A stretch of 42,137 nucleotides of DNA from Spirochaetaceae bacterium (GCA_028527945.1 JAQQAK010000197.1:1-42137); one strand, 5' to 3'. Positions 6,343 to 22,128 are shown, counted from the first letter of the stretch. Made by a program: numbers and translations. The notes: generated from the letters alone by a model not told the origin.

Positions 6343-6353
6343 GGAGGTTCAGA

Positions 6354-7132: not shown

Positions 7133-8137
7133 TCAGCATATTCGGGGAAGAAGTTCTCCTCCGGGTTCAGGGAGCAATGTTTTGGCTCCTATTTCTGTTT
7201 TCATAACAACCCTTCCCGGCATTTCTGAGGTTACTTCTCCTATCACAGCAGCCTCCTTTGAATACGGAAGCTGTCTGAGAGTTTTTACTATCTGCTCGGC
7301 CTCATCCATTGGCGCAAAAACTACAAGTCGGCCTTCACAGGCAAGGTACAGTGGTTCAAGTCCCAACATTCCACAGACCCCGGCGACTTCTCCTGATACT
7401 GGAATCTCTTTTGAATCAAGACATATTCCTACATTGCTCTGGTTGGCAATTTCGTATAATACAGTTCCAACACCTCCCCTTGTTGCATCTCTTATTACAT
7501 GTAGTGTCTTTGTAACCTCGAGCATTTTCTCAACTGCTCCCCAAAGAGGAGCACAGTCACTTTTTATGCTTGTTTCAATCCCAAAATCTTCTCTGGACAA
7601 CAGAATAGAACATCCATGTCTTCCGATATCTCCAGTTACAATAACAGCGTCTCCTACACAGGCTTTACTTCCGGACAAGCTTATACCCTCTGCAAGCTGC
7701 CCAACACCGCTTGTTGTAATAAAAATATTATCAATCTGCCCCTTACCAGCGACCTTTGTGTCTCCGGCAACTATCTTCACACCTGTTTCTTTTGCCGTTT
7801 TTTCCATTGATGACGCAATTTTTTCAAGAATAGTCAGAGGAAAGCCTTCTTCAATAACAAAGGCGCAGGTCAGGTATAATGGCTTTGCTCCCATGCAGGC
7901 AAGATCGTTTACTGTCCCGCAAATACTTAGCTTGCCGATATTCCCTCCAGGAAACTCAAACGGTGAAACAATGAATCCGTCTGTTGAAAAAGCAATCTTT
8001 CCAGAGTCTATTTGAAGAATAGCCGCGTCATCTGCTGTAAGTAAGGGATTTGAGAAATGAGTTTTAAATACCTCATCTATCAGCATGGAAGTCTGTTTTC
8101 CTCCTGCCCCGTGTGCCAATGTAATATTTTTTTCCAT
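7133..8137 (-). CDS. hypE: Hydrogenase maturation protein HypE (carbamoyl dehydratase, PurM-like)
   Basis: The N-terminus is LAHGAGGK. The protein has PurM-like architecture and ends with the invariant PRIC motif carrying the cyanated cysteine. The ATG at 8137 overlaps the hypD stop (TAATG). Confidence 0.92.
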   Translation of the reverse strand: MEKNITLAHGAGGKQTSMLIDEVFKTHFSNPLLTADDAAILQIDSGKIAFSTDGFIVSPFEFPGGNIGKLSICGTVNDLACMGAKPLYLTCAFVIEEGFPLTILEKIASSMEKTAKETGVKIVAGDTKVAGKGQIDNIFITTSGVGQLAEGISLSGSKACVGDAVIVTGDIGRHGCSILLSREDFGIETSIKSDCAPLWGAVEKMLEVTKTLHVIRDATRGGVGTVLYEIANQSNVGICLDSKEIPVSGEVAGVCGMLGLEPLYLACEGRLVVFAPMDEAEQIVKTLRQLPYSKEAAVIGEVTSEMPGRVVMKTEIGAKTLLPEPGGELLPRIC

Positions 8138-9201
8138 TATAAGTTCCCTCCATATTGATAATAAGCTGAACATGCTCCCTCATTTGAAACCATGCATGCT
8201 CCAACCGGATGCTGTGGATTACAAATCTTTCCAAACAGTCCGCATTCTGTTGGTTTGCATTTGCCCTGAAGAATGTCTCCGCAGCGGCAGGCCGGATTAC
8301 TTTTTCCGGGAATCTTTGGAAGATTAAAACGTGTTCTTGCGTCAAAATCTTTGTAGTCGGCTCGGAGTTTCAAACCTGATTTTTTTATCTTACCAAGTCC
8401 ACGCCATTCTGAATCACAACTTTCCATTGTTTCGTTTACAAGTTCTTGTGCCGGTATATTTCCTTCGGATTTTACAACCCTTGGATAGCAGTTTTTGAAA
8501 AAAGGTTTACCCTTTTCTGACAGTTTGATTGCAACCGCCAAGGCCGTTAGAAGTTCATTAGCGGTAAATCCTGTCACAACTCCAGATACTCCTTCTTTTA
8601 CAAGGCTTTCACATACTGATGTGCCGGCTATTGCGTCTACATGTCCGGGATAAAGAAAGGCGTCCGCGCTGTTTTTTAGAATCTTGTATGCTTCTGGCAT
8701 TGTTTTATTTGCTACAAGTAAACTGAAGTTTTTGATTCCATCAGCCTTTGCCTTCTTTACAGCCAGGCATGATGCCGGAGTTGTTGTTTCAAATCCAACA
8801 GAAAGAAAAACTATTTCTTTATCCGGATGCTCTTTAGCGTATGATAGAGCGTCAACAGGCGAGTAGACCATCTTTATTGAGGCTCCTTTTTGTCTTGAAT
8901 CAGCAAGGCTCATTTTTGAGCCGGGAACCCTAAGGAGATCTCCAAATGTACAGATTACAGCCCTATGTTCAAGCGCCAACATAAGGCTTTCATCAATAAA
9001 GCCTACCGGTGTAACACAGACCGGGCAGCCTGGGCCTGAAATAAGTTTTATAGTGTCTGGCAGAATATTCCGTATTCCCAGACGAAATATCTCGTGGGTA
9101 TGTGTCCCGCATACCTCCATGATTCGTAGAGGTTTTCCTTTGTAGGATTCAATTATCTCTTTTGCCGACATTTTTTTATTTTCTATGCAAGCCGTCTTCA
9201 T
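8137..9201 (-). CDS. hypD: Hydrogenase maturation protein HypD
   Basis: It carries the conserved motifs MEVCGTHTH and GPGCPVCV and a C-terminal Cys-rich Fe-S region. The ATG directly abuts the hypC stop (TAAATG). Confidence 0.92.
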   Translation of the reverse strand: MKTACIENKKMSAKEIIESYKGKPLRIMEVCGTHTHEIFRLGIRNILPDTIKLISGPGCPVCVTPVGFIDESLMLALEHRAVICTFGDLLRVPGSKMSLADSRQKGASIKMVYSPVDALSYAKEHPDKEIVFLSVGFETTTPASCLAVKKAKADGIKNFSLLVANKTMPEAYKILKNSADAFLYPGHVDAIAGTSVCESLVKEGVSGVVTGFTANELLTALAVAIKLSEKGKPFFKNCYPRVVKSEGNIPAQELVNETMESCDSEWRGLGKIKKSGLKLRADYKDFDARTRFNLPKIPGKSNPACRCGDILQGKCKPTECGLFGKICNPQHPVGACMVSNEGACSAYYQYGGNL

Positions 9202-9408
9202 TTATAGTGACTCCATGATCTCATCAGTTTCATCTTCATCATTATCTGTAATCTTGGCGATTGCTATTCCGGCATGAACCATTACATAATCTCCCGGTTC
9301 CAGATCCTTTATAAGCTCTGCCGAGATCTCTCTTTTAGCTCCGGATGCGTCAATTATGGCCATTCCGTTATCAATTCCAATTACCTTTGCTGATAATCCA
9401 ACACACAT
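9202..9408 (-). CDS. hypC: Hydrogenase maturation chaperone HypC/HybG/HupF family
   Basis: The protein is 68 aa and begins MCVG, which places the essential Cys at position 2. SD AGGAGGG lies upstream. Confidence 0.9.
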   Translation of the reverse strand: MCVGLSAKVIGIDNGMAIIDASGAKREISAELIKDLEPGDYVMVHAGIAIAKITDNDEDETDEIMESL

Positions 9409-9419
9409 ATTATCCCTCC

Positions 9420-11735
9420 TTAAAATTCATGTTTTAAACTTGTCATTGCTATAACCGCCTGTCCAAGGGCTATAGCTCCATCGTTAGGCGGTGTCAGGCT
9501 GTGAAGCAGAACCTTGAAACCTTTCTTTTCAAGACTTAATACACACAAGGATGTAAGAAGCTTGTTCTGAAATACACCTCCACTCAACGCGCATGTATTT
9601 AGTCCAGTGCTGTCGCGGGATATCTTGCATCCCTCTGTAATCATTTCAGATAGAACTGAATGAAATTCAAACGCGAGCTGTTCCTTTTCTATTCCAGCAA
9701 GAACGGAATCGGTTATATGTCTAAAGAGCAGATCTGTGCTTAGCTCAAATTTTCTACCGTTTTTCGAGAGCATTTTCTTTGCCCATTCTTTTACGGGAGA
9801 TTTTGCTCCTTTAAAGTTTTCTGCCGCAAACTGCAAGGCCATAGCCGCTTCCCCTTCAAATGTTGAACATTTTTTTATAGAAAGAACTGCGCTTACAGCA
9901 TCAAAAAGTCTTCCGGAGCTTGTGGAGCTAACAGTATTAATGCCTCTATCTATTATTGCTCTTTGAATATTCATCTCTTTCTTTGTGCAGAGCTTAAGGC
10001 TGTTAATTATTTCTTCAGATTCATTTCCGTAAATTTGACATAGCATTGAGACGGCGATTTTCCATCCTTCTCTTGCTGAAGAATCTCCGCCGGGCTGAGT
10101 GAATGGGCAGATACTACCAAGCCTTTCAAAATCCCTGTAAGAAGCCCTGAGGAATTCTCCTCCCCATATACTTCCGTCTGTTCCATATCCGGTACCGTCA
10201 AAACATACGCCTATAACATCTTCCTTATAATTATTTTCTGCCATGCAGGAGGCTACGTGTGCCCAGTGGTGCTGTACCCTGATAACTGGAATATTCAGTT
10301 TTTCAGCAACCATGACCGAATTATATCCGGGATGTAAATCACAGGCTGCGATCTGTGGTTCTGCTTCAAGAAGTCCTTTCATTCTTGTTATGGACTCTTT
10401 AAGAGCAGTAATTGTTCGTATGTCTGAAAGATCTCCGACATACGGCGATAGATAAAAAAGATTGCCTTTTCCTATGCAGAATGAATTTTTCAATTCTCCG
10501 CCAATTCCTATAACCTGGCCGTTTAAGGTTTCTGACAACAGAAAAGGAAGGGGGGCGTAGCCACGAGATCGGCGAATCATATACGGTTTATGTTGAAAAA
10601 AGTCCATCACTGAATCATCAGCGCGAAGCAATATTCTTCGGTTATTAGAAAGTATTAGATCGCAGAAGCTTCTAATTTCGGAAATTGCGTCTTTGTCATT
10701 TCGGCAGATGGGCGCTCCTGATACATTACCGCTTGTCATAAGAAGGCAGTCAGTCATTTTTATATTATCATCGTATTCAAAAAGGAGCATATGTACCGGA
10801 GTGTACGGCAACATAACGCCTACAGTCGGATTATCTGGAGCAATTTGATTGCATAAGCTGCTATTAGCTTTCTTTGGTAACAGAATTATTGGTTTTTCAT
10901 GACCTGTAAGTATTTTTTCCTGCTCAGGTAGTATTGCACATTCTCTTTTTGCGGTATCTATATCGCGGAGCATAACTGCAAAGGGTTTAGTAGGGCGGTT
11001 TTTAAGACGTCGTAGACGGCTTACTGCCTTTTGATCTTTGGCATTGCAGCATAGGAGAAACCCTCCTATTCCTTTAACAGCTATAATCTTTCCTTCCATT
11101 ATTGCTTTTCTGGCTGTAGTTATGGCTTCACGATTTTTTTCTTTTTGACCTATAATATACAGTTCCGGGCCGCAGCTGTTGCAGCATACTGGTTGGGCGT
11201 CATACCTTCTTGTTTCAGAATGAGTGTATTCATATTCGCATTCATCGCACATTGGAAAGTCCGCCATGGTTGTTCGCTCTCTGTCGTATGGAAGAGATTC
11301 AAGGATGGTAAGTCTCGGCCCACAATTAGTACAGTTTATAAAAGGATGAAGGTAGCGCCTGTTGTTTTTGTCAAAGAGTTCCTCCCTGCATTTGTCGCAT
11401 GTTGCTATATCCGGAGATACAAAAATATCTCCACTTTCTTTCTTGCTATCTATTATTCTAAAACTATCAAAGAGTTCTTCTGTGGAATCATTGATTTCTA
11501 TTTTTATTATTGCTGACCTCTCCGGAGGAGTTTTTCTTAGCGCTTCTAAAAGACCTTTGATAGCAGATTCAGAGCCTTGTGCTTTTATCTCGACAAAAGA
11601 CCCTTTGTTTGCTACCCAGCCCTTTATTCCCAGTGCGCAGGCTGTTTTACTGACAAAGGGTCTAAATCCTACTCCTTGTACAATACCGTAAACACGAATA
11701 ACACGGGCAGCTGTAGCTATTAATTCCGCCTTCAT
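9420..11735 (-). CDS. hypF: Carbamoyltransferase HypF
   Basis: The 771-aa protein has an N-terminal acylphosphatase domain (VQGVGFRPF) and two CxxC...CxxC zinc-finger pairs (CDKC..CTNC, CDEC..CNSC). YrdC-like and Kae1-like C-terminal regions follow. The ATG overlaps the stop of the upstream nitrogenase-like gene (ATGA at 11732-11735). Confidence 0.93.
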   Translation of the reverse strand: MKAELIATAARVIRVYGIVQGVGFRPFVSKTACALGIKGWVANKGSFVEIKAQGSESAIKGLLEALRKTPPERSAIIKIEINDSTEELFDSFRIIDSKKESGDIFVSPDIATCDKCREELFDKNNRRYLHPFINCTNCGPRLTILESLPYDRERTTMADFPMCDECEYEYTHSETRRYDAQPVCCNSCGPELYIIGQKEKNREAITTARKAIMEGKIIAVKGIGGFLLCCNAKDQKAVSRLRRLKNRPTKPFAVMLRDIDTAKRECAILPEQEKILTGHEKPIILLPKKANSSLCNQIAPDNPTVGVMLPYTPVHMLLFEYDDNIKMTDCLLMTSGNVSGAPICRNDKDAISEIRSFCDLILSNNRRILLRADDSVMDFFQHKPYMIRRSRGYAPLPFLLSETLNGQVIGIGGELKNSFCIGKGNLFYLSPYVGDLSDIRTITALKESITRMKGLLEAEPQIAACDLHPGYNSVMVAEKLNIPVIRVQHHWAHVASCMAENNYKEDVIGVCFDGTGYGTDGSIWGGEFLRASYRDFERLGSICPFTQPGGDSSAREGWKIAVSMLCQIYGNESEEIINSLKLCTKKEMNIQRAIIDRGINTVSSTSSGRLFDAVSAVLSIKKCSTFEGEAAMALQFAAENFKGAKSPVKEWAKKMLSKNGRKFELSTDLLFRHITDSVLAGIEKEQLAFEFHSVLSEMITEGCKISRDSTGLNTCALSGGVFQNKLLTSLCVLSLEKKGFKVLLHSLTPPNDGAIALGQAVIAMTSLKHEF

Positions 11736-12778
11736 TTTTCAAGCCTTCCAGATACCGCAAAATGTGGAAAGTCAATAAATCGTCCATTATATTTTTTCAT
11801 TACACGCCTGAAAATTTCATCTCCAATAACTACATCATAATCTCCACTTTCTAAAATTCCTTTAAGCTGATCCTCTTCTGTAAGTCTGAAATCATGCTCT
11901 TGCATCAGGCTCTCTTTCAGCATAAACCATGACGCTACGGTGATATCAGCTTCTGTTTTTTTCAAGATTAAATCTCTAACACTATTGGCCGCTACCTGTT
12001 GGTGAATTATCAGTATTTTTTTCCCCTTTAATTCATAGAGCTCTTTTTGAAGGCTTTCCGGGATGGGTATGATATTAGTGATATAAGGAGTTCCAAATTT
12101 TTCTTTAAGGTATTCTGCTGCCTTAAGCCCCGATGGGGAAACTACAATATTTTTTTCTACTGCCGAAGCCTTTTTTATAAATTCAAGTCCGCTTCCCATT
12201 CCATAACAGGTTGTGTTTTTCCATCCTCTATTTTCTAAATATACTGTTATATTTTTTTCAGCTTCCAGGTTGCTGAAATCAAGAGGTGTTGCACCTATCA
12301 CGCCTGCACTTCCTTTCTTTACTGGTAGTTGTTCGACACTGAAGGTTTTAAAAAGCTCCAGATACGCTTGTTCTGCGCCCTCGTCATAATATCTGGTTCC
12401 GGTTGTTTCTATTGTTATAGACGGCAGTCCTGTGCGTTTTTCAGCCATTCGTTTCAAAGCCTTGAAGTCTGTAGCTATTACCGCCGGAACAGGGGTTCCT
12501 ACAAGGGTTGTGAAGTCTACATTTGTTTTGGACGCTGCATCCTGAAGTTTTTCAATAAGTTTGTCATCACGCCCAAGGATAGCATCTATATCGCGGAGTC
12601 CTGCACTAAAAATAGCGCTTTTTTTATGAAACCACCGCGGTTCATCAAATCCACATATATTTCCGGTACATCCTCCCGCGTCACAGATTACTGTAAGACC
12701 ACCAAGCTCGTATAAAACTGACACTGCGCCAGAAAGATCCGGAGCAAAGGGAGACAGCCGCTTTAAAAGATTATTCAT
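11732..12778 (-). CDS. Nitrogenase component-1-type oxidoreductase subunit, beta (NifK/NifN)-like, cassette 2
   Basis: It lies after a NifH-like/NifD-like pair. It shares N-terminal motifs with the 14869..16020 paralogue (SGxxSxLYELGGxTVxxDAxGC and DEPRW). At 348 aa it is shorter than canonical NifK/NifN. Confidence 0.7.
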   Translation of the reverse strand: MNNLLKRLSPFAPDLSGAVSVLYELGGLTVICDAGGCTGNICGFDEPRWFHKKSAIFSAGLRDIDAILGRDDKLIEKLQDAASKTNVDFTTLVGTPVPAVIATDFKALKRMAEKRTGLPSITIETTGTRYYDEGAEQAYLELFKTFSVEQLPVKKGSAGVIGATPLDFSNLEAEKNITVYLENRGWKNTTCYGMGSGLEFIKKASAVEKNIVVSPSGLKAAEYLKEKFGTPYITNIIPIPESLQKELYELKGKKILIIHQQVAANSVRDLILKKTEADITVASWFMLKESLMQEHDFRLTEEDQLKGILESGDYDVVIGDEIFRRVMKKYNGRFIDFPHFAVSGRLEK

Positions 12779-14072
12779 TTATTATTCCTCCTGACAAAGC
12801 TGTATTGAGACTTGTAAAAAGTCTTTTAACTCCTGAGTAACCAAACGGTTGGCGTTCTTCGTTCCAGTAGATTCCAGGACATTCTGAATGGTAATAGGCC
12901 GCGTCCTGGCCTATGAAGGCGTCTGCGTCTGAGTTTTCAGCGCTATGGTAGAGCATTGTTGGAGACAGGTTTGAATAGATTCTTGTTTCCGGACTTATAT
13001 CCGAAATCTTCTTTATATATGCGAAGTTTATCTCGCCTGCCGTCCCATAAATATCGGAGACTGAAAATCCGTAACGTATTAATGCCAGAGATAATTCAAA
13101 TGGATCCGCGTTTACCCATTCACCTACCGCAAATATACGATTACTATGCTTTTTGTAGCATTCCTCTATAGCTGAAAGGGCTTCGTCATAGTATTTTTGA
13201 TCATCAAACTTTATTCCGGCAGCCTCTCCAAATAGTTTATATTGAGTTTGAATTTTGTCGATCTGATACATTCTGTTTAATTCTATACCAGGAATTTCCA
13301 GTCTGTCTGCCATATCCTGTGCAGCGTATCTTGCCTCCTGATTAAGAATCAGATTAAAGTTTGCTTCGGACATCTTCATGTATTCATTAAAATTTTCACA
13401 TCTGGAAATTTCCCGGATTTGAGTGACACCCGCTTTTTTAAGCATGGTGTAGAGTTCACATTCATCATCAATAGGAGAAAAATATCCAAGCAGGTTAACC
13501 GATGTCGGCTTTTTGGGAGTAGGCTCAAGAAGAGAATAGATCGATTTTCTTACCGCGGCCATTGGAGGGAGCCTCCCTTCTCTAGTAAGGGCGTACATAT
13601 AGCATGGCAGAACTGGAATGCCCACAAATGCTGAGGCCTTCCGACATACCCGTTCCATATCGGTACCAAGAAGGGCGTCTACACATGTTATACAGATCAT
13701 AACAACAGATGGTGGTTGTTCACATGCTTCGCAAACTTCTTTAACGGCCTCTGGTATCTTTGAAAGATGGCGTCCTGTTACAATATCCGTTTCATCCATC
13801 AGCATATAGAAGAACTTGTCGGAATCGCCTTCTTTTCCTCCAGCCAATGTGGTGTTTCTTCCACAGCAGGCCGGAGCCGCAAGTAACATAACAGACCCTG
13901 GAATAGACAGCCCCGCGCGTTTGACTCCAAATCCCTGAGCACCAGGAGAATTAAAGGCTAGGGTTGCCGGAGAGCTGTAGATCATATGAGCTGAAGACTG
14001 AAGTTCTGCAGGAATATTATCCTGCCCCAAAGCCGCAAGTTGTTTTGCTGTGATGCTGTAAACATTATTCAT
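12771..14072 (-). CDS. Nitrogenase component-1-type oxidoreductase subunit, alpha (NifD/NifE)-like, cassette 2
   Basis: The size (~434 aa) and position after the NifH-like gene fit an alpha-like subunit. Cys-containing motifs are [16 protein letters not shown] and [10 protein letters not shown]. It is a paralogue of 16017..17348. I chose the ATG at 14072, preceded by GGAGG at 5-nt spacing; an alternative ATG lies at 14087. Confidence 0.7.
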
Positions 14073-14829
14073 TAGAGCCTCCGTCATTAATAAACTGCTC
14101 TGCCAGTTTCAGGAATATCTGGCTTACATGAAGCATTTTGTCTCCCTCTATAACGGTTTTTCCCATATCCTCATAGCGGATAATGTCGTCACTTCTTGGT
14201 ATATCAGCTATGATAGGGAGTCCGGCTTTATTAGCGAAATCAGTAACCTTTTCCTCTTCCCTTTCAACACTTCTCCGGTTCATCACAATTCCCTTAACCT
14301 TTGCGTAGCCACGATCTTCGAAGTTGTTTACTGCTGTGTTTATATTGTTTGCGGCATACAAGGCCATTTTTTCTCCTGACGTTACAATAATAATCTCCGA
14401 GGCATAGCCCTCACGTATTGGGGCCGCAAATCCACCACATACAACGTCTCCTAGCACATCATATAAAACAACATCGGGCTGATACTTCTTAAATAGTTTA
14501 AGATCCTCAAGAAGGCTGAATGTTGTAATTATTCCCCGTCCAGCGCATCCCAGACCAGGAGTAGGGCCGCCTGTTTCTATGCATAGAATCCCTTTGAACC
14601 CTTCCTTTGCAATATCTTCTATTTTTTCAGGTTCCCGGTCATATTCGCGTAAATAATTCATAACTGGCATAACAGGATTGCCGTTAAGCAGGTTTGTTGT
14701 AGAGTCAGCTTTTGGATCACATCCTATCTGAATTACTTTCTTGCCAAGAGCCGCAAAGGAGGCGGCAAGGTTGCTTGTAATAGTTGACTTTCCTATTCCG
14801 CCCTTTCCGTAAACAGCAATCTTTATCAT
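14065..14829 (-). CDS. NifH/BchL/CfbC-family ATPase ([4Fe-4S] reductase component), copy 2
   Basis: It carries P-loop GKGGIGKS and switch I CDPKADST, plus both cluster-ligand cysteine motifs (GCAGRGI and GDVVCGGF). Length is 254 aa. SD GGAGGA lies upstream. Confidence 0.9.
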
Positions 14830-14868: not shown

Positions 14869-16020
14869 TTAAATATCTCTAAAAACTGTAGCTTTTAGAG
14901 ATTCCTTTATCATATTGGGTATTTCGCTTCGATAGCATCTTCCGGAGAAGGCCTCATGCGGAAGTCGGTAAAACGGTACATCATTAGGGCAGATGGGCTT
15001 ATAAAGGGGGTCTGCTATAATTCCGGATGCAAGAGCAAGCTCTTTTTCCGCGCTTTCTTCGTCCGGAATTTCACCATCACTTTCTGCCTGCAATTCAGTT
15101 GATGTTTCAAGCGGACATAAAACCCTTGCCGTCTTTCCGTATTCCAGCTCAATAGCGCGTGCTAACGAACCGGAATAAATGCTTTCACCTACTATTGAAA
15201 GATTGCTCCCGTTTGTAAAACGTTCTGAACTCGGAAAGAGGTTTTCTTTGTTTTTTGAAGCTGTTCTCAATTTATCTGCGAGAACTCCAGCAAACTTTTG
15301 ACCGAATGGGACTCCGGTAACATATGGTGTTCCGAATCTCTTTTTCAACAGTTTTGCCGCGGAAAGCCCACTGTATGATATAACCAGATTTACACTGGCT
15401 CCGGCGGCGTTTTTTATATCTTCAAGGCTGCTTCCCATTCCCATACAGGAGACTGTGCTAAACCCCTCCGTGTAAAGCCATTGTTTTATAGATTTGATAC
15501 TTCCGTTTACAGAGAAATCAAGCGGTGTTGCACCCAGTATATTTACAGAATCTTTTTTTTGCGGCATGTTATCTTCTTTACAGAAGCGATTTATTATTGC
15601 CTCGAATGCTTCTGAGGCTCCTTTTAAATAAGAATGCATTCCATTTGTCTGTATACAAAAAGAAGGTATACCTGTGTTTTCTTCTATTTCTATAGCTAAT
15701 GCCTGATAATCTGTTCCAATCATCATTGCTACGGGAGCTCCACATAGGGCAATGAATTTGGGCGAAAGCTTACTTGCTGTTTCTGTAATATCTGAAACCA
15801 GCTTTGCATCATCCCCCATTATTGCCTCAGTTTCTGTGAGGGCGGAAATGTATACCATGCTGTCAATATCGTACCACCTTGGTTCATCGTGTGTTGTATA
15901 TGTCGAGTTGCATCCTGAAGCGTCATGAACTACTGTCATGCCTCCCAATTCATAGAGGGCAGAGCACACACCAGAGGTGTCTGCCGCGTATATTGGTATA
16001 ATTCTTGCGCTATGTTTCAT
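14869..16020 (-). CDS. Nitrogenase component-1-type oxidoreductase subunit, beta (NifK/NifN)-like, cassette 1
   Basis: It is a paralogue of 11732..12778 with the same N-terminal motifs (SGVCSALYELGGMTVVHDASGC, DEPRW). The ATG at 16020 overlaps the upstream stop (ATGA); the ORF-track start at 16026 is a TTG codon. Confidence 0.7.
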   Translation of the reverse strand: MKHSARIIPIYAADTSGVCSALYELGGMTVVHDASGCNSTYTTHDEPRWYDIDSMVYISALTETEAIMGDDAKLVSDITETASKLSPKFIALCGAPVAMMIGTDYQALAIEIEENTGIPSFCIQTNGMHSYLKGASEAFEAIINRFCKEDNMPQKKDSVNILGATPLDFSVNGSIKSIKQWLYTEGFSTVSCMGMGSSLEDIKNAAGASVNLVISYSGLSAAKLLKKRFGTPYVTGVPFGQKFAGVLADKLRTASKNKENLFPSSERFTNGSNLSIVGESIYSGSLARAIELEYGKTARVLCPLETSTELQAESDGEIPDEESAEKELALASGIIADPLYKPICPNDVPFYRLPHEAFSGRCYRSEIPNMIKESLKATVFRDI

Positions 16021-17348
16021 AAGCAACTCTCACATCCAAGCCCCTTATAGCTTATTAGCTCTTTTGTTTTTTTTGGCTTAAGGCTGGCCTCTATCATCAT
16101 TTCTGCTAACCGGATTATTCCGCTAAAACCGTATAGCCCTCCACCTGAGACTATGTTGACAAAATATGGTGTATTATTGAAATAGGCTGCTTTTTGACCT
16201 ATTGCAAGAACCTTTCTTTCTGGAATTTCTTTTTTAAGAAAACGCTTTTCAGGATGAACCGTTGAAGCTAATAAAATATTAGGCGCATGTTCTTTCAACC
16301 AAATAAAGTCTTCTTCTTCAGTAGCCACAAAGGCCTCGGAATAAATTTTTTCTACTCTAAAACTGTGTTCTGTCAGCAGCCTTGCCAAGCTTATTGGGCG
16401 TGGAGTCGCTGTGTAATCTATTGTTATGGGAAGATTTCCTATTTCTGTATGAGCCGCCTCAAGAGCCTTTTCTGCCTTTCTTATATCTTCTGAAAAATCC
16501 GGTATTTTCATATCTAATTCTACAGAAAGTCGTTTAAAATTCTCTGTTATTTCATGATATGAATAGCTTAAAGGTATATGCAGGTGTCTCTGTCCAAGGC
16601 GCCGTTCAAGTTCCTCTCCAGCAGCATAGGTTGTTGGAAGATATGTAATATTTACAGCACTCTCGGCCATATTAAGAAAGGCCTTGTAGCTTTTGCAGTT
16701 TGTAATGTCTTTTATCACAAAGCTGCTTTTTTTTATCATTGTAATAAGTCTACCTGATTGATCTGTCGGTCTATCATTTCCAATTATATTGATGCTTTTG
16801 CTGTTTTTAGGCACAGGTTTTAGCGGGCTATAGAGTTGTTTACGCATCAGGGCATCCGGAGTAAGACCACTCTTTCGCATAGTAGGAGTCATATAGCTTT
16901 CAATAAAGTCTACAGTTGGAAATCTTTTTTCAAGCTCTTTAAGCGTTATAGCAAAATCGCAGCATGCAAAAAGATGTACACAGCTTAAAAAAACTAATAC
17001 AACAGGAGGCAACGTTTCCATTTTATTCAAGATTTCTGTAGTTCCATTTACAATATCGTCTTCAAGACTCGCATCAAGAAAGTCGTTTTCACAGATTGAA
17101 ACCCATGACATCCTGTCCATGGCGTTCATTTCGGCAGCTGTTAAAATTACTCCACGAAGGCAGCCCTGTGCGCATATAAAAATTTGATGCGATTCAGGGA
17201 TAAGCATCCCTGTATGCACTATATTCCATGTTCCTCTTGCCGGAGCATTGTATTCCAGGCCTGTAATAAATGGTTCAGGAAAGGCTGCCTTTGCAATACT
17301 TATCTCAGGGGCTTTAGTTTCATTAATAGTTTTAAGACTTTTCAGCAT
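16017..17348 (-). CDS. Nitrogenase component-1-type oxidoreductase subunit, alpha (NifD/NifE)-like, cassette 1
   Basis: The 443-aa protein has Cys motifs [16 protein letters not shown] and [13 protein letters not shown]. Their arrangement resembles the three-Cys cluster-ligand pattern of NifD/NifE/BchN. It overlaps the NifH-like gene by 7 nt. Confidence 0.7.
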
Positions 17349-18109
17349 AATTGTTTCCTATAGTCAAGTTTCAGAAGCCTTTCCGCTATCTTCCTGTATT
17401 GTTTGGCCATTTCGCTTTCAGGAAAGGCTTCTATAACCGTCTTTCCGGTAAGTTCTGCTTCTTGAACGGTCGTGCTCCAGTCCAGCTTTCCTATAATTTT
17501 TGTTTCAAGATCTTCTGCGAGCTCTTTTACTTTAGCTGATTCATTTTTTACGTTACGGTTGTTTTGAATAAGTCCAGCAAGAGAGGCGTATCCTCTCCCC
17601 TGGAATCCCTCAACTGCCATAGCAATATTGGCCGCGGCATGAAGAGCCATATTTTCTCCCGATGTAATGATGAGAACCTTGTCTGTGTATCCTCCTCTCA
17701 TTGGCATAGAGAATCCCCCGCACACAACGTCTCCCAGAACGTCGTATAAAACTACATCCGGTTTGTATTTTTCGTACGCGCCCTTTTGAGCCAATTTCTC
17801 AAGAGCTGTAATAATTCCGCGTCCGGCACATCCTTTTCCAGGCATTGGCCCTCCCGCTTCAACACAAATAACATTACCAAAGCCCCGGCATACCATATCT
17901 TCCAAATCGAAATCGTTTTTATATTCTCTGACAAGCTCAAGAACAGTAGGTAGTTTTGTATTGGAATGAAGGCTTTTTGTAGAATCAGCCTTTGGATCAC
18001 AGCCTATCTGCATTACGCTGAGCCCTGTTTGTGAAAGTGCTGCTGCAATATTGGATGTAGTGGTGGACTTTCCTATTCCGCCTTTTCCATATACGGCTAT
18101 TTTAATCAT
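17342..18109 (-). CDS. NifH/BchL/CfbC-family ATPase ([4Fe-4S] reductase component), copy 1
   Basis: It carries P-loop [23 protein letters not shown] and GDVVCGGF. Length is 255 aa. The ATG overlaps the hydE stop (ATGA at 18106-18109). Confidence 0.9.
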
Positions 18110-19161
18110 GAATTATTCCTTCCTTTATAATCACCTCTTGAGATTTTTATGTCATACCCGATAGACGACATCCGTTTGCGCAAATCTATCATGCATCTTG
18201 ATGTTTCAACGTCAGAGTTTTGTTTGTTGTTGTAAAGCATGTATTTGCCCCTGACCCGACTGGGGGATAGATTTGGCATAATAACGTTTGCTCCTGCAAG
18301 AATACCTTTTTCCCGTCCTTCAGGATCGATAGTTCCAAGGGCTGTTGTTGCCGGCAGTAGAACATCCGGCAGCATAATTCTGCAAAGGCTAAGAAAGAAT
18401 AAACTTGTCTCAAGGCTTCCGGTTTTTTCAGCAGCAAATGGGGTGTCCTTATGGGGGATAAAAGGGCCTATACCTATCATTTCAGGATTAAAGTTTGATA
18501 GAAACTCCATATCCTTAACCATACAGTCTATATTCTGGTAGGGAGCTCCTACTATAAAACCACAACCTGTTTGATAGCCTGTATCTTTCAAGTCCTGTAG
18601 ACAGCGCATACGGTTTTTCCATGACTGCTTAGCGGGGTGCAGTGCTTTGTAGTGTTTTTCATCTGCTGTTTCATGTCTAAGCAGGTAGCGGTCTGTTCCA
18701 GCTTTAAACAGGTTTGTGTAATCTTCCGGTTTCAGCTCTCCCACTGAAAGAGTTACTGCTGAATCCGGATATTTATTTTTAATTTCAGAAACAATATCTG
18801 CCAGTTTATCAGTTGTAAAATATGGATCTTCGCCGCTTTGAAGAACAAAGGTTCTAAATCCCTGGGAATGGCCCTTTTGGCAGCAGTTAAGGATATCTTC
18901 TTTCGATAGTCTGTATCTGCCTATTTTAGAATTGGAATGCCGTATTCCACAATAATAACAGTCATTTTTGCAAAAGTTTGAAAATTCTATTACGCCGCGT
19001 ATATATATACTTTTTCCAAATTTTTGTAATACGACAGTTCTGGCAATAAAAGCTGCATATGTTCTATCCTCTTCTATCCAGCTGGATAAAAGCTTTTTCC
19101 ATTCTGAAGAAGATAGCCTTTTTTCTTTATTAAGACGATCAATTAATTCCATATTATTCAC
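18106..19161 (-). CDS. hydE: [FeFe]-hydrogenase H-cluster radical SAM maturase HydE
   Basis: The protein is BioB-like and ~350 aa, with the radical SAM motif in the HydE-typical context [17 protein letters not shown]. It sits next to hydF and the aspartase-like gene, as in known hyd maturation clusters. The listed start is GTG at 19161; an alternative ATG lies at 19152. Confidence 0.82.
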
Positions 19162-20434
19162 AGGCTGAATCTCTATTATTGTTTTTCAGAAGTATTTTTA
19201 GTTTTTCTTCCGCCTCAGAAGGTGTTTTGCTTGCTTTTACGATCTCTGCCACGGTGTCGTATCCCAGGACGGTGCTGTAGGAGGTGGCATAAGCAAATGA
19301 ACGTTTTAGAAGTTTTTCACAATTTATTTTGTTTGGAATCAAAACCGATATACATTTTTCATCAAAAATACATACCGCACGTTCCAAAAGATTCAGGCTT
19401 TCAAGCATAGAGTCGGCTATTAATGGAAAAAAGGCATTCAACTCAAATTCTCCATGAGCCGCTGCCATTGTTATCGCATTATCATTAGCAATAACTCGCA
19501 TCGCGCACTGCATAACCATTTCCGGAATTACTGGATTAACCTTCCCGGGCATTATGCTACTTCCTTTCTGCATTTCGGGAAGGGTTAACTCTCCAATTCC
19601 TCCCCTTGGCCCAGAGGCCATAAGGCGGATATCGTTTGCTATCTTCATCAGATTTACGGCAAGAGCCTTTAGCAGACCGGAAGTTTCCACAAAAACATCA
19701 TTATTCTGGGTGACATCCATTGGATATTCTGCCGAGGCAAGTCCTATGCCTGTGAGTTCCCGTAGAATCTCTATTATTCTGAAACGATACTTCCGCTCTG
19801 CGTTATCGTATCGACCTACTGCTGTTCCTCCAATGTTAACTTGCCTCAGACGTTCTTCAACCTTGTACAAGCGCCATCGGTCCCGGGCAATAGCTTGGGC
19901 ATAGGCTCCAAACTCACTTCCAAGAGTTATTGGAACAGCGTCCATCAGTTCTGTTCTTCCAAGTTTTTTTATCTCATCAAATTCCTTTTCTCTCGTCTGT
20001 AAGCTTTCCTGAAGTTTGGCACATGCATCGCTTAAATTTCGCAATAGTCTGACTGCTGCTATTCGAAGAGCTGTAGGGTAGACATCGTTTGTTGATTGTC
20101 CACGGTTTACATCGTTTAGTGGATGAACCAGTCTTCCTGTTTTTTCTGAAGCAGCCGTGGCAATGACTTCATTAAGATTCATATTTGTTGATGTTCCAGC
20201 TCCTCCCTGAAGGGCTTCTATGATAAAACTGTCATCAAATTCACCGTTGATAATTCTGTCGCATATTTCGGCTATACAATTGTACATTTCTGGTTTTATG
20301 TTAAGTTCTTCATATGTTAGAGCGGCCGCTTTCTTTACTACGGCAATAGCGTAAATCAAATTTATATTTGTTTTTTTATGATTCAAACTGAAATTATTCA
20401 TGGCTGATTCTGTTTCTTTTCCGTAATATGTCAT
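19154..20434 (-). CDS. Aspartate ammonia-lyase/class II fumarase superfamily protein (hyd-cluster-associated lyase)
   Basis: It carries the superfamily signature GSSIMPGKVNPVIPE. At 426 aa it is shorter than canonical AspA/FumC. The ATG overlaps the hydF stop (ATGA). Confidence 0.8.
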   Translation of the reverse strand: MTYYGKETESAMNNFSLNHKKTNINLIYAIAVVKKAAALTYEELNIKPEMYNCIAEICDRIINGEFDDSFIIEALQGGAGTSTNMNLNEVIATAASEKTGRLVHPLNDVNRGQSTNDVYPTALRIAAVRLLRNLSDACAKLQESLQTREKEFDEIKKLGRTELMDAVPITLGSEFGAYAQAIARDRWRLYKVEERLRQVNIGGTAVGRYDNAERKYRFRIIEILRELTGIGLASAEYPMDVTQNNDVFVETSGLLKALAVNLMKIANDIRLMASGPRGGIGELTLPEMQKGSSIMPGKVNPVIPEMVMQCAMRVIANDNAITMAAAHGEFELNAFFPLIADSMLESLNLLERAVCIFDEKCISVLIPNKINCEKLLKRSFAYATSYSTVLGYDTVAEIVKASKTPSEAEEKLKILLKNNNRDSACE

Positions 20435-21645
20435 TTGTCAGCTGGCTCCAGAACAGAGGCTAATCCGGGGAAAATAGCGATACTTCGTTTAAGTATTCCC
20501 TGCATATAAGCAATTGTTATTCCGTAATTTGTGAATGGAATCTTCTGATCCATCGAACATTTCATGCGGTAAACCATTTCTCTCCCTGTAAGCATGCAGC
20601 CGCCGCAATGTATGATTAAAGAATATTGTTCAAGCTCATCGGGAAATTCTGTTCCAGAAACTGTTTCAATAGAGATAGATTTTCCTGTGTAGTTTCTAAG
20701 CCACCGCGGGATTTTTACGCTTCCTATGTCATCGCATTGCCTATGATGGGAGCACCCCTCCGCTATAAGTACCCGGTCTCCGTCTTTCAGAAATTCTACT
20801 GCCGCAACGCCTTTGACTGCAGTGTTTAAAAAGCCTTTGTATCTGGCCATAAGTATGGAAAAGGAGGTTAGGGGAATATCTGGAGGAGTGTCGGCCGAAA
20901 CCTTCGCGAAGACCTGACTGTCTGTAATTACCATCGCAGGTTTTTCTCCAAGTTTTTCAAGGGTTCCCCTCAGTTCGAACTCTTTTACTACAATGGCCGC
21001 TGCGTCAGCCTCAAGGATATCTCTTATCGTCTGCTGCTGCGGGAGAATCAGACGCCCTTTTGGCGCAGCCTTATCAACCGGGACTACAAGTATTACGAAA
21101 TCGTCAGGATTAATAAGATCGCCAACAATCTGCAGCTTCGAATCTCTTACATCAATAGATTTGGAAATTTTTTCTTTTAGCTCATTTATTCCTGTTTTCT
21201 GAATAGCGCTTGTACATATTTCATGTGAATTATTTGTTGGTAGATTATCTTCAAGATCGCATTTATTTAGCACAACGATATAAGGAATATTTTTTTGTTT
21301 AAATATTTCAATCAGCTCTTTTTCACAACCATCTTGAGCTTCTGTAATATCTGTTACAAGAACTGCGACATCTGTTTTATTCAGAACCTGTTTTGTTTTT
21401 TTTACGCGCATTTCTCCAAGTTTTCCTGAATCGTCAAAACCTGGGGTGTCAATAATCATTACCGGGCCCATTGGCAGTAATTCCATTGCCTTGTACACCG
21501 GATCTGTTGTTGTTCCTTTTTGGTCTGAAACAAGAGCAATATCCTGATCTGTTACCGCGTTTACAATACTGGACTTTCCAGCGTTTCTTCGTCCGAAGAA
21601 TCCTATGTGTATACGATTTGCCGATGGTGTATCATTCATTCCCAT
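20431..21645 (-). CDS. hydF: [FeFe]-hydrogenase H-cluster maturation GTPase HydF
   Basis: The N-terminal GTPase G1 motif is GRRNAGKSS. The C-terminal cluster-binding motif is CSHH...(about 45 aa)...HCGGC. SD GGGGAGG lies 5-6 nt upstream of the ATG. Confidence 0.88.
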   Translation of the reverse strand: MGMNDTPSANRIHIGFFGRRNAGKSSIVNAVTDQDIALVSDQKGTTTDPVYKAMELLPMGPVMIIDTPGFDDSGKLGEMRVKKTKQVLNKTDVAVLVTDITEAQDGCEKELIEIFKQKNIPYIVVLNKCDLEDNLPTNNSHEICTSAIQKTGINELKEKISKSIDVRDSKLQIVGDLINPDDFVILVVPVDKAAPKGRLILPQQQTIRDILEADAAAIVVKEFELRGTLEKLGEKPAMVITDSQVFAKVSADTPPDIPLTSFSILMARYKGFLNTAVKGVAAVEFLKDGDRVLIAEGCSHHRQCDDIGSVKIPRWLRNYTGKSISIETVSGTEFPDELEQYSLIIHCGGCMLTGREMVYRMKCSMDQKIPFTNYGITIAYMQGILKRSIAIFPGLASVLEPADK

Positions 21646-21669: not shown

Positions 21670-21709
21670 AAAAAAAAAGATAGCCGTACCCTGACGGATA
21701 CGGCTATCT
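21670..21709 (-). terminator. Intrinsic terminator-like hairpin plus U-run, lying between the TM1266-like gene and hydF
   Basis: The stem is a perfect 11 bp (21678-21688 pairs with 21699-21709) with a 10-nt loop. On the minus strand it is followed by nine T residues (21678-21670). The U-run ends 24 nt before the hydF ATG. Confidence 0.7.
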
Positions 21710-21846
21710 TGCGCTTTCGTGATTAATAGCTATATCGAACTTTCGTCTCAATAAAAATTTTGACGTCAGGTGATACTTTGCTTCAGGAACTTTTGTTCCC
21801 AATATATGTAACCGGGGTTTTTATGTCCCGATATTGTCTAATATTT

Positions 21847-22110
21847 TTAAGTGTCTGCCTTATTTATAATATTTGAATAGACTGTTTTGGCTGAAACACC
21901 ATTAAGTCTGCCAATCTTTCCTGCAAGATTGTTAATGATGTCCTGCGGGGCATCAATAGCGACGCTTATAATATTAACACCCTTTTCTTTGTATGGAAGC
22001 CCCATTCGCCCAATAATGTAAGAACCTGTTTCATGCAATAAGGCGTTAATCTGAGTTGCAGAATCTCTGCTCTCCGCTATTATTGAAATAACGGCTACTC
22101 TTGTTTCCAT
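21847..22110 (-). CDS. Small ACT-like protein of the TM1266 family (putative iron-only hydrogenase system regulator)
   Basis: The ~87-aa sequence METRVAVISII...SYIIGRMGLPY...VNIISVAIDAP matches my recollection of the TM1266-type family that accompanies hydE/F/G. I chose the ATG at 22110, preceded by GGAGGAAAC; the ORF-track start at 22143 falls inside the putative promoter. Confidence 0.65.
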   Translation of the reverse strand: METRVAVISIIAESRDSATQINALLHETGSYIIGRMGLPYKEKGVNIISVAIDAPQDIINNLAGKIGRLNGVSAKTVYSNIINKADT

Positions 22111-22128
22111 GTTTCCTCCATTTAAACA

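Follow-up and report, generated by a model that had tools for sequence, protein, structure and literature searches.

Conserved linkage of hypFCDE to nitrogenase-like genes in a Spirochaetaceae genome and across anaerobic bacteria

Results

The window analysed here is a stretch of 42,137 nucleotides from the metagenome-assembled genome (MAG) of a Spirochaetaceae bacterium (GCA_028527945.1, JAQQAK010000197.1:1-42137). Open reading frames (ORFs) scored with Pfam and NCBIfam models delimit a 14-gene cluster on the minus strand (7133–22143), which runs from a TM1266-like gene through hydF, an aspA-like gene, hydE and two NifH/D/K-like sets to hypFCDE, its final four genes (Table 1). From hydF to hypE the genes are tightly packed, with eight overlapping junctions and five gaps of 0–39 nt, and hypC and hypD abut. 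At the K2/hypF junction, which reads ...GAA AAA TGA / ATG AAG GCG... on the minus strand, the hypF ATG (11735–11733) overlaps the K2 stop TGA (11734–11732) as ATGA, just as a sequence-only reading of this DNA had described.

Table 1 Features of the cluster, in window coordinates
Feature	Position	Strand	Description
hypE	7133..8173	-	346-aa ORF; PurM-like ATP-dependent dehydratase; Pfam AIRS + AIRS_C
hypD	8137..9201	-	354 aa; [4Fe-4S] scaffold protein; PF01924 at 451 bits
hypC	9202..9408	-	68 aa, begins MCVG; PF01455
hypF	9420..11735	-	771-aa carbamoyltransferase; five Pfam domains
K2	11732..12778	-	348 aa, NifK/NifN/BchB-like; PF00148 at 66.5 bits
D2	12771..14087	-	438 aa, NifD/NifE-like; PF00148 at 102 bits
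H2	14065..14829	-	254 aa, NifH-like ATPase; Fer4_NifH at 296 bits
K1	14869..16026	-	385 aa, NifK/N-like; PF00148 at 112 bits
D1	16017..17348	-	443 aa, NifD/E-like; divergent D2 paralogue
H1	17342..18109	-	255 aa, NifH-like ATPase; Fer4_NifH at 288 bits
hydE	18106..19161	-	radical-SAM [FeFe]-hydrogenase maturase; TIGR03956 at 525 bits, cut-off 255
aspA-like ammonia-lyase	19154..20434	-	Lyase_1; NF008909 at 509 bits, cut-off 510
hydF	20431..21645	-	[2Fe] subcluster GTPase scaffold; TIGR03918 at 573 bits, cut-off 326
Terminator-like hairpin	21677..21710	-	predicted, consensus scan; 15-bp stem then T7
TM1266-like small protein	21847..22143	-	PF21699; TIGR03959 at 106 bits, cut-off 61
Promoter-like site, TM1266-like gene	22156-22129		predicted (promoter scan)

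The hyp set is intact, as had been claimed. HypF contains the Pfam domains Acylphosphatase, two zf-HYPF, YrdC-like Sua5_yciO_yrdC, HypF_C and HypF_C_2, and in HypC both Cys2 and His45 are invariant among 66 orthologues. HypD aligns over its full length with Thermococcus kodakarensis HypD (PDB 2Z1D, E = 1.7e-83) and has the CGTHTH, GPGCPVC, GFETT and PGHV motifs and the C-terminal cysteines, with 13 of 13 motif cysteines approximately 100% conserved in the orthologue alignment. HypE, the true start of which may lie a few codons downstream of the ORF start, ends in ...GELLPRIC, and C346 together with 168 further positions is at least 97% conserved in 68 orthologues. Across the clade, these orthologue alignments show conservation of every Hyp catalytic residue. 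When every substantial ORF of the 42-kb window was scanned with Pfam, none matched HypA, HypB, an endopeptidase or either [NiFe] subunit (large or small), again in agreement with the earlier reading, and none matched HydG or HydA. Its description of the set as 'minimal' is misleading, because the cluster also contains hydE and hydF and hence recruits [FeFe]-type maturases.

In set 2 (H2-D2-K2), the D2 profile matches NifD and NifE in the PDB (E = 6e-15 to 8e-13), and H34, C74, C75, C132, C135, C230 and H400 are invariant. Cofactor ligands of the NifD Cys275/His442 type are absent from D2 in the profile alignment, in which Asn249 aligns at the NifD Cys275/NifE Cys250 position. K2, the closest PDB relative of which is BchB (E = 2e-4), has the invariant motif C32-x4-C37-x4-C42 (CDAGGCxGNxCGFDEPRW). 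Neither D2 nor K2 was seen to have the pair of CxxC motifs by which hydrogenases bind NiFe(CN)2CO. H2 has a P-loop, the cluster cysteines C95 and C131 and 126 positions that are at least 97% conserved, and it scores under the nifH and CfbC equivalog cut-offs. In set 1 (H1-D1-K1), H1 reaches 315 bits against the nifH model (cut-off 394), and joint alignment identifies conserved C21, H34, C39 and H46 in K1 (aligned with K2) and C59, C63, C123, C218 and a C-terminal GCxSC tail in D1. The D1 protein of the window has no match in Pfam, NCBIfam or the PDB; D2 matches D1 genes at approximately 25% identity (E = 1e-30 to 1e-38), and D1 orthologues match PF00148.

HydF has a CxH...HCxxC motif with conserved C298, H300, H346, C347 and C350, and an aspA gene adjoining hydF is a typical arrangement (PMC11736057). 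The hairpin between the TM1266-like gene and hydF is possibly an attenuator, judging from its predicted structure, and the conserved start of the TM1266-like protein is probably Met12 (22110). The family carries the name 'iron-only hydrogenase system regulator'. Across loci, the module may have or lack the hyd genes: where they occur, in about a quarter of cases (hydF in 11 and hydE in 10 of 42), they are joined to set 1. In loci other than ours, hydE also exceeds the TIGR03956 cut-off. The TM1266-like gene is found in 29 of 42 full loci, mostly immediately ahead of H1. No hydG was found in the cluster at any locus examined, and hydA is absent from the window and from every locus.

Relatives of K2 are encoded in at least 516 species genomes. 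To count neighbours, we took the non-duplicate loci of other species in which the sequence continues for 6 kb or more past K2; of these 69, all have hypC and hypD after K2, 68 have hypE and 66 have hypF, which confirms the co-occurrence of hypFCDE with the NifK-like gene that the earlier reading had proposed to look for. Where HypF was found as an ORF (70 loci), it starts no more than 200 bp from K2 in 65 cases, and in 39 of 42 loci the other NifH/D/K set is no more than 10 kb away. The loci span Clostridiaceae, Lachnospiraceae, Oscillospiraceae, Lentisphaerae/Victivallales, Synergistaceae and Spirochaetales (this MAG), so that the K2/hypF linkage, the absence of which from relatives had been named as evidence against a nitrogenase-like destination, is near-universal across at least four phyla and is more than chance. 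Divergence is also correlated, with pairwise identities of HypF tracking those of D2 (rho 0.85) and K2 (rho 0.81). No [NiFe] subunit, hypA, hypB or endopeptidase gene was found in any of about 80 neighbourhoods, and no other gene family recurs around the cluster in more than four loci, which leaves the nitrogenase-like proteins as the only candidate structural genes. HypD proteins of the cluster are at least 59% identical pairwise, even across phyla. In a search against representatives of 1.8 billion proteins clustered at 50% identity, taken without genomic context, HypD matches fell at 62–72% identity and then at 49% or below with a gap between; by sequence identity, cluster HypD proteins are a discrete clade apart from other HypD representatives.

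Hosts differ in their [NiFe] hydrogenases. Clusters occur in Blautia (loci L063, L076, L087 and L090), Coprococcus catus has a Hyp-linked cluster (PMC3464626; our locus L073) and Dorea longicatena has two linked NifHEN-like copies (PMC3464626). A HydDB-based screen, which corresponds to cluster hosts at the genus or species level through strains other than those of the loci and does not include this MAG, lists zero [NiFe] large subunits for Blautia schinkii DSM 10518, B. wexlerae AGR2146, Blautia sp. SF-50 and D. longicatena AGR2136 (Table S2, PMC6776011). The only hyp set of Clostridium ljungdahlii (L025) is that of the cluster; the genome lacks hypA and hypB and encodes a group 1a [NiFe] hydrogenase elsewhere. 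C. autoethanogenum and relatives likewise have a group 1a enzyme and no other hyp set. A [NiFe] hydrogenase lacking its own hypCDEF, which the sequence-only reading had regarded as counter-evidence, thus exists in some hosts. The C. ljungdahlii enzyme plausibly shares the cluster hyp set, and therefore the set is not exclusively directed to nitrogenase-like proteins in every host. In C. carboxidivorans a second hypCDE lies beside [NiFe] genes and hypAB (PMC9431212), which suggests that the [NiFe] enzyme uses its own hyp set when one is available.

Discussion

That the cluster recurs in hundreds of anaerobic bacteria, among them gut, rumen and acetogenic species, suggests a metalloenzyme system that is still uncharacterised. 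Given that maturases usually cluster with their structural genes and that no alternative partner lies nearby, we infer that the nitrogenase-like proteins are the Hyp clients, and we give roughly even chances to Hyp-made Fe(CN)2CO going to a nitrogenase-like enzyme or scaffold. This was part of the original proposal, and the linkage, the correlated identities, the HypD clade, the lack of another partner and the Blautia and Dorea genomes argue for it, whereas C. ljungdahlii argues against its holding everywhere; the missing NifD-type ligands in D2, the lack of hydrogenase-type CxxC pairs in D2 and K2 and the three loci without hypF count against D2K2 as the client. The direction may also be the reverse, with the nitrogenase-like proteins assisting hydrogenase maturation, and the frequent hydE, hydF and TM1266-like genes fit such a role too.

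If the nitrogenase-like proteins are indeed the clients, hypFCDE would be part of a self-contained, horizontally mobile module of which they are the structural genes. HypF and HypE would convert carbamoyl phosphate into the HypE-Cys346 thiocyanate, and HypC and HypD would build the Fe(CN)2CO unit. HypC would then hand this unit not to a [NiFe] large subunit but to a D2K2 heterotetramer, encoded directly upstream of the hyp genes and presumably translationally coupled to them. At the nitrogenase P-cluster position D2K2 would offer an unusual cysteine-rich site (D2 C74, C75, C132 and C135; K2 C32, C37 and C42), with H2 as a source of ATP-driven electrons or as an insertase, as NifH is for NifEN/NifDK. 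Set 1, joined by the TM1266-like protein and frequently by HydE, HydF and AspA, might provide a partner scaffold or a second step, a two-set logic that would parallel NifEN/NifDK or BchLNB/BchXYZ. The pathway would end in an organometallic Fe-S cofactor without nickel, or in an enzyme bearing one.

A rather unlikely alternative, proposed by Dos Santos et al. (2012; PMC3464626), is that the nitrogenase-like proteins are themselves maturation factors, that is, ATP-driven NifH/NifEN-like scaffolds for a hydrogenase active site. HypCDEF would be the partners of set 2, and HydE and HydF those of set 1; the hydrogenase that they serve would be encoded at another place in the genome and be of the [FeFe] type in most hosts and of the [NiFe] type in some. 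The system might provide CO or a reduced Fe synthon, or substitute for HydG. The hydF, hydE and TM1266-like genes (11, 10 and 29 of 42 loci), all above NCBIfam equivalog cut-offs, the constant lack of hydG in the cluster and the greater resemblance of the D/K proteins to NifE/NifN or BchB than to catalytic NifDK are consistent with this, and how anaerobes obtain the CO ligand for [NiFe] maturation is still debated (PMC12134894). However, well-studied hydrogenase hosts mature both classes of enzyme without nitrogenase-like proteins, and the cluster occurs in only a subset of Clostridia with [FeFe]-hydrogenase. As far as we know, [FeFe] enzymes need no maturases beyond HydEFG, so ten further genes with a cost in ATP would be superfluous. 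Moreover, hydE and hydF are distant from the cluster in C. ljungdahlii-type genomes, and the Hyp product differs from the HydG synthon in carrying two CN and one CO on each Fe.

We consider it improbable that these are ordinary hypFCDE genes serving a conventional [NiFe] hydrogenase elsewhere, with the adjacency due to shared regulation or horizontal hitch-hiking and no biochemical link. The Hyp proteins are canonical in all motifs, hyp genes are frequently unlinked to structural genes, and the group 1a enzymes of C. ljungdahlii, C. autoethanogenum and relatives have no other hyp set. Neutral linkage would decay, but these genes have stayed adjacent in 66–69 of 69 species from several phyla, their reading frames overlapping or almost abutting, and the HypD clade is distinct. 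The published genus- and species-level screen also found no [NiFe] large subunit in Blautia and Dorea, and hypA and hypB are missing from all neighbourhoods and wholly from C. ljungdahlii-type genomes.

It is equally doubtful that HypEF thiocyanate alone matters, as the sequence-only reading had offered as an option, giving CN to an Fe-S cluster or organic substrate on the nitrogenase-like proteins with HypC and HypD as a mere transfer relay and no carbonyl-iron unit: HypE Cys346 (PRIC) and the HypF domains are intact and nitrogenase-type enzymes bind and reduce cyanide, but HypC and HypD, the iron scaffold, are the strictest partners (69/69) with invariant Fe- and [4Fe-4S]-binding residues, HypF is sometimes missing, and we know of no CN-only role for HypCD.

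Comparison with known systems

The four Hyp proteins have the full domain sets and catalytic residues of the HypCDEF branch of [NiFe] maturation in E. coli and T. kodakarensis. Unlike in that branch, the operon partner is a nitrogenase-like H/D/K set, and [NiFe] subunits, hypA, hypB and an endopeptidase are missing from the window and the roughly 80 neighbourhoods. As in NifH/NifEN/NifDK, two paralogous D/K pairs occur together with NifH-like ATPases, NifD and NifE give the best alignments to D2, and equivalents of the Mo-nitrogenase bridging-cluster cysteines alphaC88, alphaC154 and betaC95 are retained. In contrast to the Mo-nitrogenase line, the Cys275/His442 ligands are missing (Asn249), all Nif equivalog cut-offs are far from reached, NifB is absent, a separate NifH-like protein accompanies each D/K pair and the maturases are Hyp and Hyd rather than Nif. 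DPOR (BchLNB), COR (BchXYZ), CfbCD (coenzyme F430) and the methylthio-alkane reductase MarBHDK are nitrogenase-like ATP-dependent reductases with non-N2 substrates, and DPOR and COR provide a precedent for two H/D/K-like sets acting in sequence in one pathway. Unlike these, the cluster scores under the BchL/BchB/BchX/BchY/BchZ and CfbC/CfbD cut-offs and has no linked tetrapyrrole or sulfur-salvage genes; to our knowledge none of the four is linked to CO/CN-ligand machinery. The hydE, hydF and TM1266-like genes, above equivalog cut-offs and with aspA beside hydF, resemble hyd operons, from which the cluster differs in that neither the window nor any of the loci has hydG or hydA and that the hyd genes are facultative and attached to set 1.

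No functional study of the nitrogenase-like/Hyp association was found in the literature. Dos Santos et al. (2012, BMC Genomics 13:162; PMC3464626) mention it in one sentence, without a census; their C. catus cluster is of the same type (L073, in the order H2-D2-K2-HypFCDE-TM1266-H1-D1-K1-HydF). They describe two closely linked NifHEN-like copies in which alphaC88 and alphaC154 have counterparts in the D-like protein and betaC95 has one in the K-like protein, a pattern with which our cysteine mapping agrees. New relative to that work are the absence of hydG, hypA and hypB, the hydE/hydF/aspA/TM1266 sub-module tied to set 1, the distinct HypD clade, the additional invariant cysteines, the spread beyond Firmicutes to Lentisphaerae, Synergistaceae and Spirochaetales, and the near-universal adjacency of hypFCDE to set 2 specifically.

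Results

The hypFCDE genes close a dense run of minus-strand open reading frames (ORFs) that descends from 22143 to 7133 in the order TM1266-like gene, terminator-like hairpin, hydF, aspA-like lyase gene, hydE, H1, D1, K1, H2, D2, K2 and hypFCDE, in which H, D and K denote the NifH-, NifD/E- and NifK/N-like proteins of two sets, 1 and 2. The junctions from hydF to hypE comprise eight overlaps and five gaps of 0–39 nt. What the sequence-only reading said of the sequence at this locus stands, but it left the anatomy of the upstream cluster undescribed.

Coordinates and identifying evidence of features in the hyp–nitrogenase-like cluster
Feature	Position	Strand	Evidence
sigma-70-like site	22129–22156	-	11/12 matches, best in region; just upstream of conserved Met12 of the TM1266-like ORF
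TM1266-like gene	21847–22143	-	TIGR03959, 106 bits (cut-off 61)
terminator-like hairpin	21677–21710	-	strong; 15-bp stem, T7 tail; between TM1266-like gene and hydF
hydF	upstream of hypFCDE, same series	-	TIGR03918, 573 bits (cut-off 326)
aspA-like lyase	between hydF and hydE	-	
hydE	between aspA-like lyase and H1	-	TIGR03956, 525 bits (cut-off 255)
hypF	9420–11735	-	five Pfam domains above cut-off: acylphosphatase, two HypF zinc fingers, YrdC-like, two Kae1-like
hypC	9202–9408	-	PF01455; N-terminus MCVG
hypD	8137–9201	-	PF01924, 451 bits; CGTHTH, GPGCPVC, GFETT, PGHV
hypE	7133–8173	-	AIRS and AIRS_C domains; C-terminus ...LLPRIC

The TM1266-like gene may be a transcription unit of its own, or read-through into the 13 genes after it may be governed by an attenuator. 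Genes for a MerR-family regulator, GyrI-like proteins and a DUF4872 protein immediately precede the cluster (22180–24173, minus strand), and a GyrI-like/AraC regulator precedes H2 in the Clostridium locus L003. No Rfam family, cobalamin riboswitch included, was found in the window. Farther along, the window carries an operon for late cobalamin steps and assembly of the nucleotide loop (27037–31932, minus strand; CobT, CobC-type phosphatase, CobS, CobU, aminotransferase and CbiB), a B12-binding radical-SAM protein (37810–39294, minus strand) and a second radical-SAM protein (40574–41563, plus strand) beside a solute-binding protein and a DeoC-like aldolase.

The maturase genes were described from sequence as an intact hypFCDE set, and the Pfam domains, the motifs and a structural relative agree: HypD aligns over its full length with Thermococcus kodakarensis HypD (PDB 2Z1D, E = 1.7e-83). 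HypC has the N-terminal Met-Cys and the conserved His of its family, and HypD has CGxHxH, GPGCPVC, GFETT, PxHVS and the C-terminal [4Fe-4S] cysteines. The zinc-finger cysteines of HypF are invariant in 71 orthologues, and the cysteine of the HypE PRIC terminus (C346) is conserved in 100% of its orthologues. The minus-strand junction between K2 and hypF reads GAA AAA TGA / ATG AAG, so that the HypF ATG (11735–11733) overlaps the K2 stop codon (11734–11732), which confirms the overlap reported earlier. None of HypA, HypB, an endopeptidase, a [NiFe] subunit, HydG and HydA turned up when all substantial ORFs of the window were scanned against Pfam, as the same reading had held for the first four.

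The coupling of hypFCDE to a NifK-like gene is near-constant among relatives (66–69 of 69 loci), which answers the question of co-occurrence raised from the single sequence. Orthologues 52–65% identical to the K2 of the window occur in Clostridium, Caproicibacterium, Lachnospiraceae, Christensenellaceae, Synergistaceae and Lentisphaeria. A scan with a K2 alignment over one genome per GTDB species found K2 relatives in at least 516 genomes; 80 loci were kept with 10-kb flanks, and the ORFs called in them were matched to the window proteins by BLASTP and TBLASTN. Among the 69 non-duplicate loci having at least 6 kb downstream of K2, hypC and hypD follow in all (69/69 each), hypE in 68 and hypF in 66. 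Where HypF was called (70 loci), its start lies no more than 200 bp from K2 in 65, often with the 4-nt overlap seen in the window. Departures from this order occur: in L065 and L081 (Oscillospiraceae and Ruminococcus MAGs) hypE is placed between D1 and K1 and the 21-kb locus contains no hypF, and in L060 hypC directly follows K2 and there is no hypF.

Of the 42 loci with approximately 10 kb on either side, 39 have D1 and K1, 29 the TM1266-like gene, 11 hydF, 10 hydE and 2 aspA. The genes sort into two sub-modules, an invariant H2-D2-K2-hypF-C-D-E and a TM1266-(hydF/aspA/hydE)-H1-D1-K1 that lies upstream or downstream of the first. The hydE and hydF genes of the other loci are bona fide by NCBIfam cut-offs. 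No other gene family around the cluster recurs in more than four loci, and the [NiFe] large subunit, hypA/hypB and the endopeptidase are absent from the window and from approximately 80 related neighbourhoods. A PF13189 cytidylate-kinase-like gene convergent to hypE (6315–7004, plus strand) was left out of the module because its association is weak; it lies within 10 kb of the cluster in 5 of 86 loci (L019, L029, L036, L072 and L076), as well as in the Blautia loci added later (L087–L092). In Blautia L087, L088 and L090–L092, FeoA-FeoA-FeoB genes and a heavy-metal-associated (HMA) domain protein are encoded directly upstream of H2 (approximately 3700–7500), which hints at a dedicated iron supply.

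Hyp and nitrogenase-like proteins have correlated pairwise identities. Across 34 taxa with all ten core proteins, the Spearman rho is 0.85 for HypF-D2, 0.81 for HypF-K2 and 0.60 for HypD-D2. The Hyp proteins are unusually conserved, with minimum identities across phyla of 59% (HypD), 62% (HypE) and 59% (HypC). When the window HypD was searched against one representative per 50%-identity cluster of approximately 15 billion proteins, the matches fell into two groups, 62–72% identity (all partial sequences) and 49% or less, with none between. This gap suggests that nitrogenase-linked HypD may form a discrete subfamily, a division that is suggestive rather than proven because the representatives carry no genomic context.

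The nitrogenase-like proteins themselves are remote from the characterized families. H1 and H2 match Fer4_NifH (288 and 296 bits), contain a 10-residue P-loop and have invariant cluster cysteines (C94/C130 in H1, C95/C131 in H2), and both score below the nifH, CfbC, BchL and BchX cut-offs. D2, K2 and K1 exceed the PF00148 cut-off and reach only 20–70 bits on models with cut-offs of 270–1200 bits. The nearest PDB relatives of D2 are NifD/NifE (E ~1e-11; 6e-15 with a profile), that of K2 is BchB (E = 2e-4), and D1, a remote paralogue of D2 (~25% identity, E = 1e-30 to 1e-38), has no PDB match. NCBIfam holds no model for D1, D2, K1 or K2. A single 698-aa ORF combines H1 and D1 in L005/L006 (4713–6809) and in the corresponding region of L007 (Clostridium lapidicellarium); nifH-nifE-like fusions are also mentioned by Dos Santos et al. 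2012 (PMC3464626).

Together the D- and K-like proteins form paired Oxidored_nitro subunits with inter-subunit cluster cysteines, and equivalents of alphaC88, alphaC154 and betaC95, the three positions given for the clade by Dos Santos et al. (PMC3464626), are conserved. With conservation defined as presence in at least 97% of orthologues, the conserved residues are C74, C75, C132, C135, C230, H34 and H400 in D2; C32, C37 and C42 in K2, within the invariant motif CDAGGCxGNxCGFDEPRW; C59, C63, C123 and C439 in D1 (C218 at 94%); and C21, H34 and H46 in K1 (C39 at 96%). Profile alignment to NifE and NifD places D2 C135 at the NifE 'TCV'/NifD Cys154 position and D2 Asn249 at the cofactor-cysteine position (NifE Cys250/NifD Cys275), motif inspection equates D2 C75 with alphaC88 and K2 C37 with betaC95, and joint alignments gave the D1/D2 and K1/K2 equivalences. 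From this conservation and alignment, set 2 is predicted to hold four extra invariant cysteines at the P-cluster site of nitrogenase and to be devoid of FeMo-cofactor-type ligands, and set 1 resembles a simpler [4Fe-4S] site of the NifEN or DPOR type. D1 (16017–17348, minus strand) ends in KGxGCxSC (orthologues L007–L086; C439 100%, C442 91%), a tail that resembles a flexible arm for carrying a metal or cluster and that D2 lacks.

As to whether a [NiFe] hydrogenase could be the client of these hyp genes, the host genomes point both ways. C. ljungdahlii, in which the locus (L025) reads H2-D2-K2-hypFCDE-H1-D1-K1, has a single hypCDEF set, no hypA/hypB and one group 1a [NiFe] hydrogenase elsewhere (PMC9431212), and this enzyme would therefore have to share the L025 hyp set. 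Hosts of the C. ljungdahlii type have such a group 1a enzyme. In C. carboxidivorans, by contrast, a second hypCDE lies beside the [NiFe] genes and hypAB (PMC9431212), and the other, hypF-containing set may be the nitrogenase-linked one. Blautia also speaks against a hydrogenase client. The cluster is found in B. luti (L076), Blautia sp. (L063), an isolate labelled 'B. schinkii' (L087) and with a multispecies Blautia protein (L090), and Table S2 of PMC6776011, a HydDB-based screen of 501 rumen genomes, records zero [NiFe] large subunits and only [FeFe] enzymes for B. schinkii DSM 10518, B. wexlerae AGR2146, Blautia sp. SF-50 and Dorea longicatena AGR2136, a match between cluster and missing [NiFe] enzyme at the genus or species level, not the strain level. 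D. longicatena and C. catus are carriers of two NifHEN-like copies according to Dos Santos et al. (PMC3464626).

The NifH column of Table S2 was rejected as a marker of cluster-bearing genomes: Blautia and Dorea are scored NifH = 0, and if these strains carry the cluster, two NifH-like genes escape that screen. Most NifH-positive rows in part 2 of the table are Butyrivibrio with a single NifH match and a group 4e [NiFe] enzyme, a NifH-like system distinct from this one and likewise uncharacterised. One Blautia lineage has a K2 protein whose exact sequence (P0352; L090–L092) occurs in 3030 assembly-collection blocks and on at least 1000 contigs, hence the module is very abundant in human-gut metagenomes.

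Discussion

The simplest reading makes the nitrogenase-like proteins clients of the Hyp machinery, and we consider the case for it about evenly balanced. It was first proposed from sequence, as delivery of Fe(CN)2CO to these proteins, and it stands in part: the linkage is conserved, the nitrogenase-like genes are the only conserved non-maturase genes of the module, neither genes for nickel insertion nor hydrogenase subunits are ever found with it, and some host lineages appear to be without [NiFe] enzymes, but the need for the C. ljungdahlii hydrogenase to share the set weighs against it. A more tentative proposal, which we hold to be possible though somewhat less than even, is that D2K2 itself bears an Fe(CN)2CO cofactor and represents a formerly unrecognised class of metalloenzyme. 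Starting from the observed gene content, motifs and synteny, we infer every step of the mechanism. Fe(CN)2CO made by HypCDEF would be grafted onto or beside an Fe-S cluster on D2K2 to give a nickel-free organometallic centre; H1-D1-K1 would serve as a second nitrogenase-like scaffold for assembly, with HydE and HydF joining in many hosts.

The relationship could also run in reverse, with the nitrogenase-like proteins as scaffolds for hydrogenase maturation; we think this unlikely, although it would explain the linkage to hydE, hydF and TM1266. A role restricted to cyanide, the variant raised alongside Fe(CN)2CO in the sequence-only reading, is improbable, given that no genes are retained more strictly than hypC and hypD. 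That this is an ordinary hyp operon with a coincidental or regulatory linkage is equally improbable.

The client reading makes a specific question testable, namely whether Fe(CN)2CO is used in a nitrogenase-type protein. To our knowledge, HypCDEF are considered to serve [NiFe] hydrogenases alone, and iron with CO/CN ligands is found only in the three hydrogenase classes. If D2K2 is a metalloenzyme of the proposed kind, the Hyp machinery would for the first time have a client other than [NiFe] hydrogenases, and the nitrogenase superfamily its first CO/CN-ligated cofactor. Either outcome is informative, a new organometallic cofactor or enzyme on the one hand, or nitrogenase-like scaffolds as unrecognised hydrogenase maturation factors on the other, and the latter possibly bears on the problem of how the CO ligand arises anaerobically. 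The module, with HypC and HypD always and HypE and HypF almost always beside a nitrogenase-like H/D/K set, spans at least 516 species and is common among Blautia of the human gut, Clostridia of the rumen and industrial acetogens, and its carriers among the gas-fermenting acetogens (the C. ljungdahlii group) are genetically tractable. For annotation, 'hyp' genes in such genomes are not to be taken as evidence of a [NiFe] hydrogenase, nor two nifH-like genes as evidence of diazotrophy.

Among known systems, a genuine nitrogenase (Nif/Vnf/Anf) is ruled out by Asn249 at the cofactor-cysteine position, by the lack of NifB in the window and by scores below cut-off (D2 36 bits against 654 for nifD; the NifH-like proteins 302–315 against 394 for nifH). 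DPOR, COR and CfbCD are ruled out by missing ligands and sub-cut-off equivalog scores (CfbC 293–312 bits against 402, BchB 40–59 against 490, CfbD 29 against 268), and no tetrapyrrole-modifying gene recurs beside the cluster in related loci. A HydEFG [FeFe]-maturation system does not fit either: HydE and HydF exceed their cut-offs, and neither HydG nor HydA occurs in the window or in any locus. A HydG in disguise was also rejected, with no HydG-like radical-SAM ORF, no weak HydE-like ORF and no 400–560-aa CxxxCxxC ORF besides D2 in any locus.

Two closely linked NifHEN-like copies, linked to hydrogenase maturation genes, were noted by Dos Santos et al. 2012 (PMC3464626). A collection of 8 million full texts yielded no other link between these families and no functional study of the association, and the linkage is not mentioned in the isoprene-reductase paper, a review of [NiFe] maturation (PMC12134894) or the ammonia-lyase paper (PMC11736057). 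Known families are thus combined in a system that is widespread yet essentially unstudied, with one mention as its literature record. By its gene order the window belongs with the 'NifHEN-like plus hydrogenase-maturation' cluster of Firmicutes described by Dos Santos et al., and the C. catus locus (L073), which belongs to the same cluster type, has the same components as the window.
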